Below are positions 3,828-60,526 of a stretch of 64,000 nucleotides of DNA, in pieces. A program made the position numbers and the translations under genes. The DNA is from Cytophagales bacterium (GTDB lineage Bacteria > Bacteroidota > Bacteroidia > Cytophagales > Thermoflexibacteraceae): NCBI GenBank assembly GCA_013299115.1, contig JAAFKA010000014.1:1-64000 (forward strand), given 5' to 3'. The first letter of the stretch is position 1. Each line of letters starts with the position of its first letter. The notes under the pieces were generated by a model, which saw only the letters and a program-made list of their open reading frames with translations, made no database searches and was not told the origin of the DNA.

Positions 3828-3844
3828 GATTTACCACAAATTGT

Positions 3845-3922
3845 GTAGTGTGGACTTCAGTCCACACATAATGAATAATGTTTATTACTCAGTTAAAATG
3901 TGTGGACTGAAGTCCACACTAC
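3845..3922. repeat. Hairpin-pair element, copy 1
   Basis: Two inverted 24-bp copies of gtagtgtggacttcagtccacaca flank a 31-bp spacer. Each copy is itself a perfect 8-bp-stem hairpin (gtgtggac-ttca-gtccacac). The element lies between convergent genes. The same 24-bp terminal units recur at 61007-61123. Confidence 0.85.
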
Positions 3923-3927
3923 ATATC

Positions 3928-4407
3928 TTACCCAAAAACCTCCTGCTCAAAATACAATAAAATATGTTCTTTCAGCACTTTTTCTTGATTTACCAAATCT
4001 AAATAAGGCAATTTTTTGGTAGGTTTCCAATGCACCCAACCCTCTTGGTCTTTGCCTTCGGGTTCATAAAACTCCGAAAGACTTAGCACCCGACAAATAG
4101 CCCAGTGCATGAGGTCTTGTTTTTCCTCCTTGCTAAAATTTCGCTGTCCCTGCCCCAGTTCTTGTACCCCTATCAGAAACAGCACGCCATTCAGGTCGGG
4201 CTGCTTGCCAAAAATTCCCTCCAAACGAACTAACAACTGCTGCCAAGCTATGGCTACCTCATCGTCTGCAGCTAAGTGCGAAGACAAATTAATGCCTATT
4301 CCTCCATTGAGTTCGAAGGGTCGCAAGGTAGCTTGCAATTTGGGTTTGGACTGCGAGTCGGGCTGCATAGCATATATTTCTGGATTTTTCTCTGGTTTCA
4401 TATTCAC
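3928..4407 (-). CDS. hypothetical protein (159 aa)
   Basis: Long ORF with no family recognised. Confidence 0.4.
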   Translation of the reverse strand: MNMKPEKNPEIYAMQPDSQSKPKLQATLRPFELNGGIGINLSSHLAADDEVAIAWQQLLVRLEGIFGKQPDLNGVLFLIGVQELGQGQRNFSKEEKQDLMHWAICRVLSLSEFYEPEGKDQEGWVHWKPTKKLPYLDLVNQEKVLKEHILLYFEQEVFG

Positions 4408-9880: not shown

Positions 9881-9932
9881 TTACTTTTTCCATAGTGTAG
9901 GGGTTGCAACCCCTACACTATGGAAAAAGTAA
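9881..9932. terminator. Bidirectional terminator-like perfect hairpin (24-bp stem, tgca loop)
   Basis: ttactttttccatagtgtaggggt-tgca-acccctacactatggaaaaagtaa lies between convergent genes, with a T-run on one side and an A-run on the other. Confidence 0.7.
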
Positions 9933-41029: not shown

Positions 41030-43963
41030 TTGAAAAAGCTAATTCTTGTATTTTTTTTGCTTTTTGCAGCCACAAGTAACTTTTGCTTTGCCCAAAACAA
41101 AAAAGTAATAGACAGCCTTACACAAGTCTATCACAACGCCAAGCACGACACAATAAAAGTATTGGCTCTTACTTCTATTGCCTACGAGTACAGAAGAAAT
41201 AAGCCAGATACTTGTATTTCCATTGCTGAAAAAGCCCTGCAAATAAGTGAAAAAATACAGTATCGCAAAGGGCAAGGCAATAGTTATCATCACATAGGTT
41301 TAGGCTATTATAATAAGAGTGCTTACCCTTTGGCATTGGAATATTACCAAAAAAGCTTGAAAATACGAGAAGAAATAGGGGATAAACAAGGTATAGGAAG
41401 TAGTTTCAATGCCATAGGGCTTATTTACAATAATCAAGGCAATTACCCTTTGGCTTTGGAATATCACCAAAAAAGTCTGAAAATAGAGAGAGAAATAGGC
41501 AATAAGCAAGGCATAGCCATTAGTTTGAATAACATAGGCAATATTTATGATAATCAAGGCAATTACCCTTTGGCTTTGGAATATCACCAACAAAGTCTGA
41601 AAATAGCGGAAGAAATAGGCAATAAACAAGGTATAGCCAGTAGTTTGAATAACATAGGCAATATTTATGATAGTCAAGGCAATTATCCATTGGCTTTGGA
41701 ATATTACCAAAAAGGTATGAAAATAGAGGGAGAAATAGGCAATAAAAAAGGCATAGCCAGTAGTTTGCATAACATAGGGATTATTTACAAAAATCAAGGC
41801 AATTATCCTTTGGCTTTGGAATATTACCAAAAAAGTATGAAAATAGAGGGAGAAATAGGCAATAAAAAAGGCATAGCCAGTAGTTTGCATAACATAGGGA
41901 TTATTTACAAAAATCAAGGCAATTATCCTTTGGCATTAGAATATTTCCAAAAAAGCCTAAAAATAAAGGAAGAAATAGGGGATAAACAAGGCATAGCCAA
42001 TAGTTTGAATAACATAGGACTTATTTACGATGATCAAGGTAATTATCCTTTGGCATTGGAATATTACCAAAAAAGCCTAAAAATAAAGAAAGAAATAGGG
42101 AATAAACAAGGCATATCCATTAGTTTGAGTAACATAGGGAGTATTTACAAAAATCAAGGCAATTATCCTTTGGCATTAGAATATTATCAAAAAAGCCTGA
42201 AAATAGAAGAAGCAATAGGAGATAAAAAAGGCATAGCTGGTAGTTTGAGTAACATAGGCAATATTTATGATAGTCAAGGCAATTACACTTTGGCTTTGGA
42301 ATATTACCAAAAAAGCCTGAAAATAACAGAAGAAATAGGCGATAAATTGGGAACTACCTATTCCCTGTGTGGAATTGCCCAAGTAGCCCAAAAACAAAAA
42401 GACTATGATAAAAGCATAGATTATGCACAAAAAAGCCTAAAAATTGCCCAAGAAATAAAAGCCTCCGCAGAAATCAAAAGTGCAAGCGAAGTCCTTTACA
42501 ATAGCTATAAACTCAAAGGCGACTATGTGAAAGCCCTTGAATACCACGAACTATTTAAGGCAACGAATGATAGTATTTTCAATATAGACAAAGCAAAGAA
42601 AATAGCTAATTTGGAAGCAACTGCGGAGATAGAAAAAAAGTCAAAAGAAATAGAGATTTTGAATAAAAACAAGGAATTATCCCAAAAAGAAAAAGAGGTG
42701 TTGGAAAAAGATTTGAAACTCCAAAGTACAGAGGCAGAAAGGCAGCGAAATGCTAATTTGGTGCTTGAAAAACAAGCAGAAGCAGATAAATTATTCAACC
42801 TTGCTCGGCAAGAAAAAGACAAACGAAAAGCAGACAGCCTGAATAACCTTGCCCAGTATCACCAACTGCAAGCTGATAACCTAAAAGCAAAAGAAAAACA
42901 GCTGCAAGCCGAAAATAAAGCCCAAAAAATAGAGTCTATCAAAGAAAAAGAAGCAAAGGAATTTCAACAATATATTACCTATTTGGTATTGGTGGGGCTT
43001 TTTTCTGTTGTAGTTTTTGCTTATTTTATTTTTATTTCTCGCAAAAAAGTTCAAAAAGCATACGAACAATTAGAAGTTTCTAAAATCAAAATTCAAGAAA
43101 CCAATCAGCATTTGACATTGGCAAACGAGGAGATTTCGCAACAGAAAGAGGAAATTGTGCAACAAGCCGACAACCTCCAAGCTGTAAATCAGACCAAAGA
43201 CAAGCTTTTTGCCATCATAGGGCATGACCTCCGCAACCCTGTGGCTTCGCTAAAAGGAATGTTGGACTTGGTGGTTTCGCAAGACATTAGCCAAGAGGAA
43301 TTTGCAGAATATGCACCCAAACTTGCCGAAAACGTAGAAAATATGCACTTTACGCTAAACAATTTGCTGTCGTGGGCAAACAGCCAACTGCAAGGCATAG
43401 CCAACAAACCCCAAAATATTAACCTCCACGAATTGGCACAAGAAAACTGCAATCTACTCAAAGAAATAGCCGCTCAAAAAGGTATTAATTTGGCGAATGA
43501 ACTACCAAACAACTTGCAAGGCTACGCAGACCAGCAGCAGATTAACCTCATTTTCAGAAACTTAATTGGCAATGCCCTAAAATTTACGCCCGCAGGTGGA
43601 AGTGTGAAAGTGGTTTTAGAAAATAGAACTAACATTTCTCAAAGAAATGTTAGTTCTGAACAATTTAGTAGCATCAGAGATGACATCTTTCAAAAAGATG
43701 TCATCTCTGATGCTACTAAATTCGTGCAAATTGGAATTGCGGACACAGGCGTAGGCATGAGTGCCGAACAGATGGGCAAACTGTTCAAACAAGCCACTTC
43801 TTTTACGACCTACGGCACCAGTGGCGAAAAAGGTACAGGCTTAGGCTTGCTACTCTGCCAAGAAATGGCGGAGAAAAACGGAGGCAAAATTTGGGTGGAA
43901 AGTGAGCAAGGCAGAGGCACTACGTTTTGGTTTACGGTGGGAGTAAGGTTAGTAAATTTTTAG
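41030..43963 (+). CDS. TPR-repeat sensor histidine kinase (signal peptide, ~10 TPR units, TM helix, coiled coil, HisKA, HATPase_c)
   Basis: H-box IIGHDLRNP, N-box NLIGNALKFT, G1 DTGVGM, G2 GTGLGL. Confidence 0.85.
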   Translation: MKKLILVFFLLFAATSNFCFAQNKKVIDSLTQVYHNAKHDTIKVLALTSIAYEYRRNKPDTCISIAEKALQISEKIQYRKGQGNSYHHIGLGYYNKSAYPLALEYYQKSLKIREEIGDKQGIGSSFNAIGLIYNNQGNYPLALEYHQKSLKIEREIGNKQGIAISLNNIGNIYDNQGNYPLALEYHQQSLKIAEEIGNKQGIASSLNNIGNIYDSQGNYPLALEYYQKGMKIEGEIGNKKGIASSLHNIGIIYKNQGNYPLALEYYQKSMKIEGEIGNKKGIASSLHNIGIIYKNQGNYPLALEYFQKSLKIKEEIGDKQGIANSLNNIGLIYDDQGNYPLALEYYQKSLKIKKEIGNKQGISISLSNIGSIYKNQGNYPLALEYYQKSLKIEEAIGDKKGIAGSLSNIGNIYDSQGNYTLALEYYQKSLKITEEIGDKLGTTYSLCGIAQVAQKQKDYDKSIDYAQKSLKIAQEIKASAEIKSASEVLYNSYKLKGDYVKALEYHELFKATNDSIFNIDKAKKIANLEATAEIEKKSKEIEILNKNKELSQKEKEVLEKDLKLQSTEAERQRNANLVLEKQAEADKLFNLARQEKDKRKADSLNNLAQYHQLQADNLKAKEKQLQAENKAQKIESIKEKEAKEFQQYITYLVLVGLFSVVVFAYFIFISRKKVQKAYEQLEVSKIKIQETNQHLTLANEEISQQKEEIVQQADNLQAVNQTKDKLFAIIGHDLRNPVASLKGMLDLVVSQDISQEEFAEYAPKLAENVENMHFTLNNLLSWANSQLQGIANKPQNINLHELAQENCNLLKEIAAQKGINLANELPNNLQGYADQQQINLIFRNLIGNALKFTPAGGSVKVVLENRTNISQRNVSSEQFSSIRDDIFQKDVISDATKFVQIGIADTGVGMSAEQMGKLFKQATSFTTYGTSGEKGTGLGLLLCQEMAEKNGGKIWVESEQGRGTTFWFTVGVRLVNF
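41300..42360. repeat. Near-identical 120-bp tandem repeats inside the CDS (TPR units)
   Basis: For example, 41701-41820 and 41821-41940 are essentially identical. Many units share more than 85% identity. Confidence 0.9.
43624..43717. repeat. Two consecutive palindromes embedded in-frame in the HK ATP-lid region
   Basis: agaactaacatttct-caaag-aaatgttagttct (43624-43656) and the perfect 24-bp-arm palindrome tagtagcatcagagatgacatcttt-caaa-aagatgtcatctctgatgctacta (43665-43717). Together they encode about 30 extra residues between the N-box and G1. Confidence 0.85.
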
Positions 43964-56065: not shown

Positions 56066-58132
56066 ATGGCAAATTTTAAAAACAAAGGAACAGGGCAGAA
56101 AGGTGGTGGATATGGTAGCCGCAATAATTCCCAAAAAGAGACCAGAGGGTTTTCTGAAAACAGAAACCGCAGCAGTGCTGGCGGCGAATCCAAAAGATTT
56201 GGCAGCGACAAACCTAACTTTGAGAAAAAACGTAGTTTTGGCAGCGACAAACCAGCCTTTGAGAAAAAACGTAGTTTTGGTGGAGAGGACAAACCACGTT
56301 TCGAAAAACGTAGTTTTGGCAGCGACAAACCAGCCTTTGAGAAAAAACGCAGCTTTGGTGGTGAAGACAAACCACGTTTCGAGAAACGTAGTTTTGGCGG
56401 AGATAAACCCGACTTTGAGAAAAAACGCAGCTTTGGTGGTGAAGACAAACCACGTTTCGAAAAACGTAGTTTCGGTGGAGATAAACCCGACTTTGAGAAA
56501 AAACGCAGTTTTGGAGGAGAAGACAAACCACGTTTCGAAAAACGTAGTTTTGGCGGAGATAAACCAGCCTTTGAGAAAAAACGCAGCTTTGGTGGAGAAG
56601 ACAAACCACGTTTCGAGAAACGTAGTTTTGGCGGAGATAAACCAGCCTTTGAGAAAAAACGCAGTTTTGGAGGAGAAGACAAACCACGTTTCGAAAAACG
56701 TAGTTTTGGCGGAGATAAACCCGACTTTGAGAAAAAACGCAGTTTTGGAGGAGAAGACAAACCACGTTTCGAAAAACGTAGTTTTGGCGGAGATAAACCC
56801 GACTTTGAGAAAAAACGCAGCTTTGGAGGAGAAGACAAACCACGTTTCGAAAAACGTAGTTTCGGCGGAGATAAACCCGACTTTGAGAAAAAACGCAGCT
56901 TTGGAGGAGAAGACAAACCACGTTTTGAAAAACGCAGTTTCGGCAGTGATAAACCTGAATTTGAGAAAAAAAGTAGTGTTGGAAGCGAAGACAAACCACG
57001 TTTTGAGAAAAAGAATTTCAGTGACAATAAATCACGTTTCGAAAAACGTAGTTTCAGTAGCGACAAACCAGCTTTTGAGAAAAAAAGTAGTGTTGGAGGA
57101 GAAGACAAACCACGTTTTGAGAAAAAGAATTTCACTGACAATAAATCACGTTTCGAAAAACGTAGTTTCAGCAGCGACAAACCAGTTTTTGAGAAAAAAC
57201 GCAATTTTGTAGCAGACGAACCTGTTTTTGGAAAAAATAATGGCAAAGAAACCAACGAAGACGATTTGGGTTTTGAAGGTGGCGAAGGCAACAAAAACGA
57301 AAATACTTTCCGCAAAGACAACAAAAAGTTTGGGTTTGGTAAAAAACAAAGACCTGATTTCAATCCGATTGTAGAAACCAAGAAAAAGCACGTAACCGTA
57401 AAAAAAGCCGTTGGTGATGTGCATACCATACGCCTCAACCGTTTTATAGCCAATGCGGGTGTATGTTCACGCAGGGAGGCAGACGAATTGATAGCCACAG
57501 GACAGATAACTGTTAATGGCAAAGTGGTAATGGAAATGGGCTTTCAGGTGCATACGCATGATGACATACGCTATCAAGGCGAAAAACTGAACAGAGAAGC
57601 CTTAGTTTATGTGTTGCTCAATAAACCCAAAGACTTCATCACGACTACAGACGACCCCGAAGGCAGAAAAACTGTAATGGATTTGGTAAAACAAGTAGGC
57701 GATGAAAGAATTTATCCCGTTGGCAGACTTGACCGAAACACCACAGGTTTGTTGCTATTGACCAACGATGGCAAATTAGCCGATAAATTGTCGCACCCGT
57801 CGAGCAATGTGCATAAAGTTTACGAAGTGCTGTTAGACAAACCAATCACCGAAGAAGATTTGCAAAAACTTTTGACAGGCATCACCCTCGAAGACGGTTT
57901 GGCACAGGCAGACAAGGCTACAATGGTTACGCCTGATGGCATGGTGGTAGGCATTACCATTCACAGTGGCAAAAACAGGGTAGTTCGCCGTATGTTTGCA
58001 GAACTGAACTACGAAGTAGTGAAATTGGACAGAACTCACTATGCAGGCTTGACTAAAAAAGGAGTTGGCAGAGGAAATTGGCGTTTGCTCACTCCCCAAG
58101 AGGTTTTGCGACTAAAACATTTTACGCACTAA
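56066..58132 (+). CDS. rluB: 23S rRNA pseudouridine synthase (RluB/RsuA family) with a long N-terminal K/R/E-rich tandem-repeat extension
   Basis: The C-terminal 250 aa carry an S4 domain plus the PseudoU_synth_2 motif (RLDRNTTGLLLLTNDG). The N-terminus holds about 12 copies of a 24-aa unit. Confidence 0.8.
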   Translation: MANFKNKGTGQKGGGYGSRNNSQKETRGFSENRNRSSAGGESKRFGSDKPNFEKKRSFGSDKPAFEKKRSFGGEDKPRFEKRSFGSDKPAFEKKRSFGGEDKPRFEKRSFGGDKPDFEKKRSFGGEDKPRFEKRSFGGDKPDFEKKRSFGGEDKPRFEKRSFGGDKPAFEKKRSFGGEDKPRFEKRSFGGDKPAFEKKRSFGGEDKPRFEKRSFGGDKPDFEKKRSFGGEDKPRFEKRSFGGDKPDFEKKRSFGGEDKPRFEKRSFGGDKPDFEKKRSFGGEDKPRFEKRSFGSDKPEFEKKSSVGSEDKPRFEKKNFSDNKSRFEKRSFSSDKPAFEKKSSVGGEDKPRFEKKNFTDNKSRFEKRSFSSDKPVFEKKRNFVADEPVFGKNNGKETNEDDLGFEGGEGNKNENTFRKDNKKFGFGKKQRPDFNPIVETKKKHVTVKKAVGDVHTIRLNRFIANAGVCSRREADELIATGQITVNGKVVMEMGFQVHTHDDIRYQGEKLNREALVYVLLNKPKDFITTTDDPEGRKTVMDLVKQVGDERIYPVGRLDRNTTGLLLLTNDGKLADKLSHPSSNVHKVYEVLLDKPITEEDLQKLLTGITLEDGLAQADKATMVTPDGMVVGITIHSGKNRVVRRMFAELNYEVVKLDRTHYAGLTKKGVGRGNWRLLTPQEVLRLKHFTH
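56200..57190. repeat. 72-bp tandem repeat array within the rluB 5' region
   Basis: Repeating ...gaaaaacgtagttttggcgga/gataaacc...gactttgagaaaaaacgcagttttggaggagaagacaaaccacgtttc units. These also create long spurious ORFs in other frames. Confidence 0.9.
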
Positions 58133-58235: not shown

Positions 58236-58275
58236 ATAAAAAAATCGTAGTACAACTCGATGTCGTGCTACGATT
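58236..58275. terminator. Bidirectional rho-independent terminator candidate
   Basis: aaaaaaatcgtagtac..gtgctacgatttttt lies between convergent rluB and rplW. Confidence 0.6.
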
Positions 58276-58293
58276 TTTTAGAAAAGCTTGTGT

Positions 58294-58617
58294 TTATGCC
58301 AAACCTTCTTCGGGTGCTACTTCTGCATTGCCGAAAAAGTCTATTACTTCTCCTGCTGCCAACTGCACCATAGCTTTTTTCATTACGCCTTTTTTACCAG
58401 AAGAAACACCACTTTTCGTTTGACGAGTTTTTGTTTTTCCATTGGTGCGGAGAGTGCGTACTTCCTCCACTGTTACGCCATAAGCATCTTCTATTGCTTT
58501 TTTCACTTGCAATTTGTTTACATTTCTTGCAACTTCAAAAGTATAGATACTTTTTTCATTACCTGCTGTTGATTTTTCGGTAAGAATTGGTCTTTTTAAT
58601 ATTTCAAAAGTTTCCAT
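58294..58617 (-). CDS. rplW: 50S ribosomal protein L23
   Basis: Recognised directly from the sequence. Confidence 0.9.
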   Translation of the reverse strand: METFEILKRPILTEKSTAGNEKSIYTFEVARNVNKLQVKKAIEDAYGVTVEEVRTLRTNGKTKTRQTKSGVSSGKKGVMKKAMVQLAAGEVIDFFGNAEVAPEEGLA

Positions 58618-58678
58618 TGTGATTTGATATTTTGAACAACCTTGCTCAACGGCAAAAACAGTTGAGCAAGGTTGAGGA

Positions 58679-59305
58679 TTAAGCTAAGATTGAAGATATT
58701 TTTTCAACAGCACCTTCGCAAAGAATCAAGGTGTCTGCGTTCAAGATGTCGTAAGTGTTTAAACTATCTACGCTTACCACGTTAGTTTTTGGCAAGTTGC
58801 GAGCCGACAAATAGACATTAGGCGTATGTTCAGGCAATACCAACAAAGTTTTTTTGCCGTTTAACGACAAGTTTTCCAACAATTTGATATACTCTTTGGT
58901 CTTTGGTGTAGCAAAATTGAAGTTTTCAACCACTTTGATAGACGTTTCTTGTGCTTTGTACGACAAGGCAGAACGACGTGCTAATTGGTTTACTTTTTTG
59001 TTGATTTTGAAACTGTAATCTCTTGGCACAGGACCGAATACACGACCACCACCTTTGTAAAGAGGGTTTTTGATGCTACCTTTACGGGCACCACCAGTAC
59101 CTTTTTGGCGGTGTAGTTTGCGAGTAGAGCCAGAAATTTCGTTTCTTTGTTTTGCTTTGTGCGTACCTTGACGTTGGTTAGCCAAATACTGTTTTACAGC
59201 CAAATACAACACGTGGTTGTTGGGCTGTACGGCAAAGATGTCTTCGGCAAGTGTTACTGTTCTGCCTGTATCTCCACCAGCTATATTGAATACTGATAAT
59301 TGCAT
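58679..59305 (-). CDS. rplD: 50S ribosomal protein L4
   Basis: HRQKGTGGARKGS...GGGRVFGP matches L4. Confidence 0.9.
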   Translation of the reverse strand: MQLSVFNIAGGDTGRTVTLAEDIFAVQPNNHVLYLAVKQYLANQRQGTHKAKQRNEISGSTRKLHRQKGTGGARKGSIKNPLYKGGGRVFGPVPRDYSFKINKKVNQLARRSALSYKAQETSIKVVENFNFATPKTKEYIKLLENLSLNGKKTLLVLPEHTPNVYLSARNLPKTNVVSVDSLNTYDILNADTLILCEGAVEKISSILA

Positions 59306-59353
59306 GATAAAGTTTTGTTAAATTTTCAAAACAAACGATAACGTTTGTTACTA

Positions 59354-59977
59354 CTATTTTTCGATATAGACAAAAGAGTTATTAGCTCCTGGTACAGAAC
59401 CACTTACCAACACCAAATTCTGTTCTGCAAAAATTTTCACCACTTTGAGGTTTTTTACTTTCACTCTGTCGCTGCCCATTCTGCCCGCCATGCGAGTAAG
59501 AGGGAACACACGAGCAGGGAAAGAACAAGCACCTATCGAACCTGCGTGACGCTGACGATTGTGCTGACCGTGGGTCTGTCCACCTACACCGCTAAATCCG
59601 TGGCGTTTTACAACACCTTGAAAACCTTTACCTTTTGAAGTGCCTACTACGGCTACTTTATCTCCCTCTGCCACTACATCGGCAAGGGTAATGGTTTGTC
59701 CTAACGTCAAAGATTCTTTGAAAGACGCAGCAAATTCTGCTATTTTGCGTTTAGGTGTAGTACCTGCTTTTTTGAAGTGTCCAATCAAAGCATTAGGCGT
59801 ATTTTTTTCTTTCTTTTCGCCATAAGCCAACTGAACAGCCTCGTAGCCGTCTATTTCGGTAGTTTTTACTTGTGTTACCACACAAGGACCTGCTTGAATC
59901 AGCGTACAGGCAATACTTTTGCCCTCACTGTCGAAGGTGCTGGTCATTCCGATTTTTTTTCCAATAATTGCGGACAT
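59354..59977 (-). CDS. rplC: 50S ribosomal protein L3
   Basis: [12 protein letters not shown] start and overall sequence. The ORF-track 5' extension was trimmed. Confidence 0.9.
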
Positions 59978-60288
59978 GGTAATGTAGTTTAATGAATTAC
60001 TTGGCTTCAATTCGTTGCTTTTTTGTAGTTTTTTAGCACTTACAAAACTCAACACCGAACAGCCTTACCTTTATTTTGGGCTGCAAATGTAGATACAATA
60101 TTTAGGATTAGCAAATTATTTGTGGTTTTATTTGTAACTAAAACTTTGCTTTTCTCAAAAACAGGTTTATCTTTATTAGGCATTATCCAAATTTTGTAGC
60201 ATAGACTTTACTCTGTACTGTTAAATCACTGAAAATCAATAAATTGTATAAAATCTAATGCTATTAAGTTAAAAAAAGAGCAAAACAA

Positions 60289-60482
60289 CCTCGAAGAGGT
60301 TGAACAGCAATAGCCCTACGTGAAACGTAGGGACAGTAAAGTAGCTTTTTAATCCAACCCCGCAGGGGTTGAACAATGATACAATAGGTGCAAGTGAGTG
60401 TTCAACCCCTTCGGGGTTGGATGTAATGATGACAATATACCCTACGTTGCACGTAGGGCTATTGATGTTCAACCTCTTCGAG
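60289..60482. repeat. ~200-bp imperfect palindrome built from three hairpin types in mirror order (A-B-C ... C'-B'-A')
   Basis: aacctcgaagaggtt, ccctacgtgaaacgtaggg and caaccccgcaggggttg on the left. On the right are caaccccttcggggttg, ccctacgttgcacgtaggg and caacctcttcgaggttg. Loops are GAA, GAAA and UUCG-like. Confidence 0.85.
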
Positions 60483-60526
60483 GTTGTAAATATACTTTCT
60501 TAGCTTAATGGCACAGACTGAAGTCT

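Follow-up and report, generated by a model that had tools for sequence, protein, structure and literature searches.

The locus upstream of rplC

A stretch of 64,000 nucleotides from a Cytophagales bacterium (contig JAAFKA010000014.1, positions 1 to 64,000; hereafter the window) carries a short ribosomal-protein operon preceded by a large palindrome, and the nature of this palindrome is considered here. On the minus strand, the genes for the ribosomal proteins L3 (rplC, 59354-59977, the first gene of the operon), L4 (rplD, 58679-59305) and L23 (rplW, 58294-58617, 107 aa, the last gene) all exceeded the bit-score cutoffs of the NCBIfam equivalog models (TIGR03625, 251.3 bits with a cutoff of 142.9; TIGR03953, 244 bits with a cutoff of 130; and NF004363, 96.3 bits with a cutoff of 81, respectively), and the ATG of rplC at 59977 is the same start as in relatives. 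An earlier note, made from the sequence, had described these three genes as isolated, with rpsJ, rplB and rpsS missing; the equivalog scores confirmed the identity of the genes, and tblastn queries with S10, L2 and S19, which found no match in the 64-kb window, bore out the absences. The divergent HIT-family gene upstream is also present (60551-60946, plus strand, with HinT-like NCBIfam matches below their cutoffs). Its start codon is most likely at 60551, because an earlier ATG (60527) falls within a repeat hairpin, and the space between rplC and this gene is therefore 573 nt (59978-60550) and not 470 bp, a figure that had been derived from the longest mechanical open reading frames (ORFs). 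The promoter or the 5' untranslated region (UTR) of the HIT gene must overlap the repeat complex.

The palindrome contains six hairpins (60286-60302, 60314-60332, 60355-60371, 60403-60419, 60440-60458 and 60470-60486) in the mirror order that had been proposed, and these are far from chance expectation: CCCTACGTNNNACGTAGGG was matched twice where 0.00 matches were expected, and CAACCYCNNNGRGGTTG four times where 0.46 were expected. The loops had been taken for GNRA and UUCG caps; they are actually C-GNA-G triloops and a TGAAA/TGCAA pentaloop, together with their complements. As single-stranded DNA, the 209-nt core (60282-60490) folds into one long hairpin (-80.5 kcal/mol, z = -17.9), and it consists of two inverted copies of a three-hairpin module, A1-B-A2. 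The left module (60282-60376, plus strand) is composed of A1 (60286-60302), an AATAG head (60309-60313), B (60314-60332) and A2 (60355-60375), while the right module (60398-60490, minus strand) reads, on the plus strand, as A2' (60399-60419), B' (60440-60458) followed by CTATT (60459-60463), and A1' (60470-60486). Between them lie 21 non-conserved nucleotides (60377-60397), at the position where autonomous copies in other genomes carry a tnpA gene of about 450 bp. A covariance model, R1, which was built from 29 modules of other phyla with the window left out, recovered both modules by cmsearch as full-length, mutually inverted matches (84.6 bits, E = 6e-18 for the left and 87.2 bits, E = 1.5e-18 for the right), and no others in the 64 kb.

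A large palindrome is thus present as described, but its extent had been underestimated. The arms continue for 27 nt beyond the modules on either side (60259-60285, pairing with 60487-60513), which gives an inverted repeat (I1) with 74-nt arms at 60259-60332 and 60440-60513 that are 84% complementary, and a further outer pair of arms lies at 60192-60224 and 60505-60537. By inspection, no direct repeat flanks 60282-60490 or 60259-60513, and hence no target-site duplication was seen. The independent Logan assemblies agree with the window letter for letter and both stop at 60314, a break of the kind that inverted repeats are expected to cause when short reads are assembled.

The outer arms (inverted repeat I2/I5, 33 nt, 85% complementary) are diverged copies of a host repetitive extragenic palindromic (REP) sequence with a GTAG head and the consensus TGTAGTGTGGACTTCAGTCCACAC. 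The proximal arm, TGTAGCATAGACTTTACTCTGTAC, is degenerate, and the distal arm (reverse complement TGTAGCATAGACTTCAGTCTGTGC) stops 13 nt short of the HIT start codon. The host GTAG-REP (TGTAGTGTGGACTTCAGTCCACACAT) forms perfect inverted doublets at 3844-3923 and at 61005-61125, whose spacers (28 and 69 nt) are unrelated to each other, the latter doublet being part of an extended palindrome (60981-61143); no cognate REP-associated tyrosine transposase (RAYT) was found in the 64-kb window. In one relative with the same operon, L127, the GTAG-CATAGAC variant of the outer arms likewise forms a doublet ahead of the rplC promoter, its arms being only 39 nt apart, and the doublets of the window and of L127 are plausibly orthologous. 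In the simplest reading, the A-B-A doublet would have inserted into the spacer of an existing GTAG-REP doublet, and an eight-hairpin mirror order would therefore have resulted. A diverged variant of the GTAG-REP (GTAGCATAGAC...) was also observed in two relatives, L125 (7505-7580) and L127 (3010-3086).

A family of three-hairpin modules and an associated transposase

A scan of a species-representative genome collection with a 20-mer of the A hairpin (CAACCYCGNAGRGGTTGAAC) returned at least 113 loci, distributed over many orders of Bacteroidota as well as Verrucomicrobiota (including Kiritimatiellia), Ignavibacteriota, Acidobacteriota, Planctomycetota and Hydrogenedentota. The search for further copies that the earlier note had recommended thus found the module in other genomes. 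Among the loci listed, the A hairpin nearly always stands beside a second hairpin headed by ATAGCC, and R1 made 233 matches in the 113 loci. The module begins with A1, a covarying stem of 4-7 bp closed by a C-GNA-G triloop, which is joined by a linker (xAAy, about 3-5 nt, then (A)ATA(G/A)CC) to B, a covarying 7-bp stem with a TGAAA or TGCAA loop; a variable spacer of 17-26 nt leads to A2, CAACCCCGNAGGGGTTGAAC, a hairpin of the form CAACCCC-GNA-GGGGTTG-AAC. In the alignment of the 29 modules, the stems were 96% paired and 13 pairs were changed on both sides, with 89 compensatory cells against two one-sided (G·U) changes, a covariation score reached by none of 500 shuffles; the head was invariant in its T and A, as was the stem in its first C.

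The modules are intergenic and dispersed. Among 196 module matches obtained with nhmmer, 13% fell within an ORF of at least 150 aa, against 82% of random positions, and R1 gave no match in the relatives of the window, nor in the 561 kb that surround ribosomal-protein operons at 84 loci (on 80 metagenome contigs and in four relatives). Neighbouring copies most commonly form '+-' dimers, the type found in the window (20 cases, with gaps of 6-57 nt), and also occur as eight '-+' dimers and as 27 tandem pairs, many of them with a shared A hairpin. In other genomes, several module-bearing contigs were found per metagenome-assembled genome (MAG), and the copies within one genome are near-identical.

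Several individual loci deserve description. At L070 (1-210), a tandem A-B-A-B array has a period of about 61 nt, and at L090 (6420-7500), tnpA has a stack of several modules on either side. The same tnpA and modules are found on a contig assigned to a Nanoarchaeota MAG (L017, 1-570), an occurrence that suggests horizontal transfer or mis-binning. Integron attC sites (GTTRRRY/RYYYAAC) and, for the array with a period of 61 nt, CRISPR repeats were considered as identities of the A hairpin and were rejected, since this hairpin is partnered by hairpin B and a Y1 transposase lies alongside.

When the ORFs of the 113 loci listed were clustered, the sole recurrent neighbour was a 148-aa protein, present at 11 loci. 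It matched Pfam Y1_Tnp (1.5e-23 and 8e-27) and an NCBIfam IS200/IS605 model (62.4 bits, cutoff 55), and its nearest solved structures are the TnpA proteins of IS608 and ISDra2, with which the HUH motif and the region of the catalytic tyrosine could be aligned. At seven loci, tnpA lies exactly between a '+' and a '-' module that are 446-570 nt apart, often abutting A2 on both sides, whereas the modules of gene-less doublets are 6-57 nt apart; at the other four loci, only one flank carries a module or the locus is cut by the end of the contig. By its motifs (DH[ILV]H, WQ and YIKNQEEHH) and its length, the protein matches the IS200-like HUH Y1 transposases of subclass 1.2 and would be assigned to them, a subclass whose genes were reported to be low-copy and divergent and not to behave as insertion sequences (Quentin et al. 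2018). The small ORFs of the window, including the one at 3928-4407 beside a REP doublet, contain no Y1_Tnp domain.

The split operon and its promoter, leader and surroundings

The closest homologues of the L4 protein (88-89% and 75-80% identity) are from uncultured Cytophagales, and those of Raineya and 'bacterium 336/3' are 71-72% identical; on this basis, the organism would belong to an uncultured Cytophagales lineage near Raineya, Thermonemataceae and 'bacterium 336/3'. An isolated rplC-rplD-rplW operon is common to five lineages of one uncultured Cytophagales clade, namely the window and its relatives L005/L006 (L4 identity 88%), L007/L008/L124 (80%), L127 (79%) and L125 (75%). The neighbours differ on both sides of the three genes, and in none of the relatives examined does a HIT gene adjoin rplC. 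The palindrome was not found in L005-L008, L124, L125 or L127, despite the same split operon, and no inverted repeat lies upstream of rplC in L005, L007 and L125. In Raineya sp., 336/3 and L126 (L4 identity 71-72%), by comparison, rplC-rplD-rplW-rplB-rpsS and the genes that follow are contiguous, and a divergent recJ, not rpsJ, is found upstream of rplC. Because these unsplit outer relatives, which have no rpsJ before rplC, keep rplB after rplW, two separate events are indicated by gene order: an ancient break between rpsJ and rplC and a clade-specific break after rplW, the latter of which predates the palindrome. The earlier description of a palindrome standing instead of rpsJ is accordingly misleading, as palindrome-free relatives are also without rpsJ at this position. 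The rplB and rpsJ genes of the split clade were not located in a metagenome scan with L2, which yielded 80 loci, none attributable to the clade; 74 of the 80 had L23 directly upstream, that is, in the unsplit order. The L23 protein itself is 106-108 aa long in all split lineages (window, L005, L007, L125 and L127) and 96 aa long where rplB still follows (L009, L010 and L126), so that the split form has a C-terminal extension of 10-12 aa.

An alignment of the upstream regions of rplC from the window and four relatives revealed about 130 conserved nucleotides next to the gene. The Bacteroidetes promoter consensus consists of a -33 TTTG and a -7 TAnnTTTG box, and both boxes are kept in the alignment, about 20 nt apart. 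In the window, they predict an rplC promoter of the Bacteroidota type at 60084-60115 on the minus strand, with the -33 TTTG at 60112-60115 and the -7 box TACATTTG at 60084-60091. Upstream of the -33 box, the outer arm of the palindrome is reached after 77 nt and its core after 167 nt. Between this putative promoter and rplC lies a conserved 5' UTR of about 100 nt (59978-60079, minus strand), for which a candidate structure can be drawn from GGUAA with a UUACC that abuts the AUG, from GGCU/AGCC, and from UUCGUUGC/GCAACGAA around a variable insert. Over five distinct sequences, 96% of the cells of this structure were paired, two of the pairs being compensatory and three G·U; the single-sequence fold (z = -1.5) is not significant alone, and the leader had no Rfam match, either in the whole window at gathering thresholds or by E-value at 59900-60620. 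The promoter and leader region (59978-60115, minus strand) is common to the five split-operon lineages and does not occur in Raineya or 336/3. This leader, rather than the palindrome, appears to be the better candidate for autoregulation by a ribosomal protein.

Downstream of rplW, the window carries a convergent gene for a pseudouridine synthase (56066-58132, plus strand). It had been called rluB; its convergent orientation was correct, but its identity can be given only as a member of the RsuA/RluB/RluF family. Between the two genes, an A-run, a hairpin and a T-run (inverted repeat I18, 58239-58279) likely act as a bidirectional intrinsic terminator, and a terminator-like hairpin is also found 3' of rplW in three of the four relative lineages (L005, L007 and L127). 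The synthase has an N-terminal tandem repeat of about 430 aa (...KPxFEKKRSFGGEDKPRFEKRSFGGD...), and the Logan contigs L001 and L002 stop within it, at 57142.

Other repeats were also observed in the window. At 24897-25017, a nested mirror-hairpin palindrome with C-rich stems (CCCCCAAAGGGGG and CTCCCCAAAGGAGAG, with their complements) is unrelated in sequence to the A-B-A doublet and sits between an ORF of 979 aa, ParA/MinD-like, and the next gene; nearby, an 834-aa ORF (25038-27542, plus strand) encodes a bacterial homologue of the major vault protein (Pfam MVP_shoulder 2e-30, Vault_3 2e-9). Downstream of glgB, at 63381-63636, two to three 72-nt tandem units (AACCGCAAAGTACGCAAAGATTTACGCAAAGTACGCAGAG...) precede a copy in the opposite orientation, the arms being 55 nt long and 87% complementary. 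Two perfect palindromes, one with 26-nt arms and no loop at or near the end of a mechanical ORF (9881-9932), which may be a terminator, and one with 29-nt arms and a 3-nt loop inside a mechanical ORF (43662-43722), are unrelated to the A-B-A doublet, the GTAG-REP and the other repeat families of the window.

Origin of the palindrome and known systems

The family membership, architecture and covariation of the modules, their intergenic dispersal, their association with a transposase in other genomes and their absence from the relatives point to a mobile element, and we consider it probable that the palindrome is a transposase-less, non-autonomous copy of an element built from hairpins, comparable to a REPIN (an inverted doublet of REP sequences) or a miniature inverted-repeat transposable element (MITE). 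It is regarded as a gene-less derivative because the doublet corresponds to the inverted pair that brackets tnpA elsewhere, with tnpA replaced by 21 nt. Of the readings offered in the earlier note, that of a MITE is therefore supported in substance: the doublet is inverted, intergenic and without a transposase, and its modules flank a Y1 transposase elsewhere. If the analogy with IS608 TnpA and the RAYTs holds, the hairpins would form where the DNA is single-stranded, as on the lagging-strand template, and would be bound in the folded state by a Y1 transposase provided in trans, which might cut and rejoin the DNA beside them, as those enzymes do. The doublet could thereby be copied or moved into intergenic DNA without target duplication, and the copy in the window would have landed within the GTAG-REP doublet of the host, ahead of the rplC promoter, if the order of nesting was as suggested above. 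In its present position, the doublet is outside the predicted rplC transcript and would be dispensable for the operon.

Several observations weigh against this explanation. Neither a transposition event nor an empty site was seen, the 64-kb window contains only one doublet and no tnpA, and the 27-nt arm extension beyond the module was seen at no other locus. The 148-aa transposase fails the RAYT model (REP_Tyr_transpos, 26.4 bits with a cutoff of 80), and subclass 1.2 was listed as 'REP: no' and as generally lacking the typical terminal structures of IS200 (Quentin et al. 2018). Moreover, the invariance of A2 across phyla was partly set by the search pattern, and some taxonomic assignments of MAGs may reflect contamination.

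The other readings in the earlier note tied the palindrome to the operon itself. Since relatives were found that share the split operon and are free of the palindrome, the kind of genome that the earlier note had itself named as speaking against it, the palindrome should be neither a leader for L4 nor a mark left by the split. A leader transcribed ahead of rplC-rplD-rplW, by which L4 (or L3) would control its own operon in the manner of the Escherichia coli S10 leader, would suit the position upstream of rplC and the many stable hairpins; however, the conserved boxes of the predicted promoter and a different leader lie between the palindrome and rplC, identical modules stand in unrelated intergenic contexts in many phyla and near no ribosomal-protein operon at 84 other loci, the palindrome is symmetric on both strands, and Rfam gave no match to a ribosomal leader, so we attach almost no probability to this explanation. 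A scar that arose at the breakpoint itself when the S10 operon was split, through inverted duplication or template switching, might account for arms of 74 and 33 nt that reach past the module and for the REP doublets that, in two lineages (window and L127), lie next to a non-syntenic neighbour on the upstream side. Nevertheless, the split after rplW is common to five lineages, at L4 identities of 75-89%, which have different neighbours and three of which have no inverted repeat ahead of rplC; the rpsJ-rplC break, beside which the palindrome stands, is older than the clade; and both halves of the palindrome are full-length members of a cross-phylum family; the scar is thus a very improbable origin.

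A different alternative is that the modules are structured small RNAs (sRNAs), two convergent or divergent copies of which would lie in the window. At gathering thresholds, Rfam had no match in the whole window, and its E-value mode gave only chance-level matches at 59900-60620 (rliE, 29.7 bits with a gathering threshold of 90; DUF3800-VIII, E = 0.69). The Acido-Lenti-1 RNA motif (RF01687), described for Acidobacteria and Lentisphaerae and rated a probable RNA (Weinberg et al. 2010), is nevertheless similar in build. Read as its reverse complement, the seed gives a C-GNA-G hairpin, then ...ATAG/GTAG-CC and a second hairpin, which corresponds to A1-B of the module; in its own sense, it consists of two hairpins with a GCUA(U/A) linker and a 3-nt second loop, found in the window as the reverse complement of 60286-60332 and directly at 60440-60486. 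Like the modules, the seed motif occurs in multiple copies, in Lentisphaera and Koribacter; unlike them, it has two hairpins only, and its annotation as an sRNA refers to the other strand. RF01687 had no match at its gathering threshold in eighteen loci, the best family member tested, a half-element at L040, reaching 36.2 bits (E = 3.8e-5), 0.8 below the gathering threshold of 37, on the strand opposite the GNA loops. The window copy was not filed under RF01687, because it had no match at E <= 10, and in the literature searched no link between Acido-Lenti-1 and a transposase is recorded. The shared two-hairpin architecture and the strong covariation of the stems would favour an sRNA. On the other hand, the stem changes are nearly all from one Watson-Crick pair to another (89 double changes against two G·U), and this near absence of G·U favours a function at the DNA level, in which both strands or single-stranded DNA must pair. 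The C-GNA-G triloop is a classic hyper-stable DNA mini-hairpin, and triloops of this type recur throughout the modules, which flank the gene of a single-stranded-DNA transposase in inverted orientation, occur as near-identical copies within one genome, and form mirror and tandem arrays organised like REP sequences and bacterial interspersed mosaic elements (BIMEs). An sRNA is therefore unlikely.

Compatible with a mobile origin, the element may now be used by the host, as a protein-binding or supercoiling site, as an insulator that separates the divergent promoters of rplC and HIT, or as part of the promoter or 5' UTR of the HIT gene. REP and BIME elements bind IHF and gyrase and affect mRNA stability (see also PMC3733652), and the element fills the divergent promoter region up to 13 nt from the HIT start codon; yet relatives manage without it, and in none of those examined is HIT beside rplC, so that we give host use only a small chance. 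More speculatively, the repeated rearrangements that set rplC-rplD-rplW apart would be marked by REP-type doublets and may even have been promoted by them, an idea that arises because such doublets stand at the non-syntenic junction in two lineages. As a REP lies at this junction in only two of the five lineages (window and L127), REP-mediated rearrangement of the operon is speculation and was not adopted.

Returning to the mobile-element explanation, the kind of element is known, in that hairpin repeats tied to a Y1 transposase have been described, while this variant, a three-hairpin compound that crosses phyla, involves subclass 1.2 and overlaps an Rfam 'sRNA', appears to be new; no description of the exact sequence, or of links among these elements, was found in the searchable literature. 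We put at about even the prospect that A1-B-A2 modules are unrecognised cognate substrates of subclass-1.2 Y1 transposases, forming a cross-phylum system of the REPIN/RAYT type of which Acido-Lenti-1 is the DNA footprint, annotated on the wrong strand. A compound hairpin repeat, a group of poorly understood transposases and an orphan Rfam motif would then be joined; the REPIN/RAYT concept would extend beyond Proteobacteria, a ready substrate would be available for the biochemistry of subclass 1.2, and an 'sRNA' family would seem better annotated as a DNA element. For the operon, the tempting interpretation of the palindrome as a ribosomal regulator is removed and the leader of about 100 nt takes its place as a candidate. 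The clade-wide break of the highly conserved S10 gene order after rplW, which left a separate rplC-rplD-rplW unit with its own predicted promoter, leader and terminator, is a modest but real addition to the knowledge of operon evolution.

Compared with known systems, the palindrome resembles the S10-operon leader of E. coli, which acts by L4-dependent attenuation and translational control, only in its position upstream of the L3-L4-L23 genes; it differs in lying outside the predicted transcript, in being symmetric, in belonging to a dispersed repeat family and in being absent from relatives. Classical MITEs with terminal inverted repeats (TIRs), which derive from DDE transposons, share the inverted arms, but no direct repeat flanks the palindrome and the transposase is of the HUH/Y1 type. 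In TIRtrons, as in the autonomous copies described here, a gene for a tyrosine transposase (TIRYT) lies between inverted repeats, some of which are self-complementary, and the families are dispersed (Di Nocera et al. 2013); TIRYTs, however, are class 2.1-type proteins with a GGGGWSAS motif in the TIRs, neither of which was seen for the module transposase. Closer are IS200/IS605 elements and their gene-less, MITE-like derivatives such as PATEs, with which the modules have in common a Y1_Tnp transposase, subterminal hairpins and no visible target-site duplication. The ends of IS200/IS605 are asymmetric and acted upon on one strand, whereas those of the module element are mirror images.

Resemblance extends furthest to the REP/REPIN-RAYT systems, such as the REP and BIME elements of E. 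coli with TnpA_REP, the REPINs of Pseudomonas and the 'REPtrons'. These likewise consist of short hairpin units with a conserved xTAG head (PMC3733652, PMC3116915), which takes the form of ATAG before hairpin B of the module and of GTAG in the seeds of Acido-Lenti-1. They are also intergenic and multi-copy, as the modules are in other genomes, are arranged in inverted doublets (head-head or tail-tail) and tandem clusters, and have a low-copy Y1/HUH transposase gene flanked by inverted units, again as in the other genomes. The module differs in being composed of three hairpins in a fixed order, where a REP is a single palindrome; in an A2 hairpin that is nearly identical across phyla, where REPs are usually species-specific; and in a transposase that matches class 1, subclass 1.2 (IS200-like), and not the class 2 of the RAYTs.

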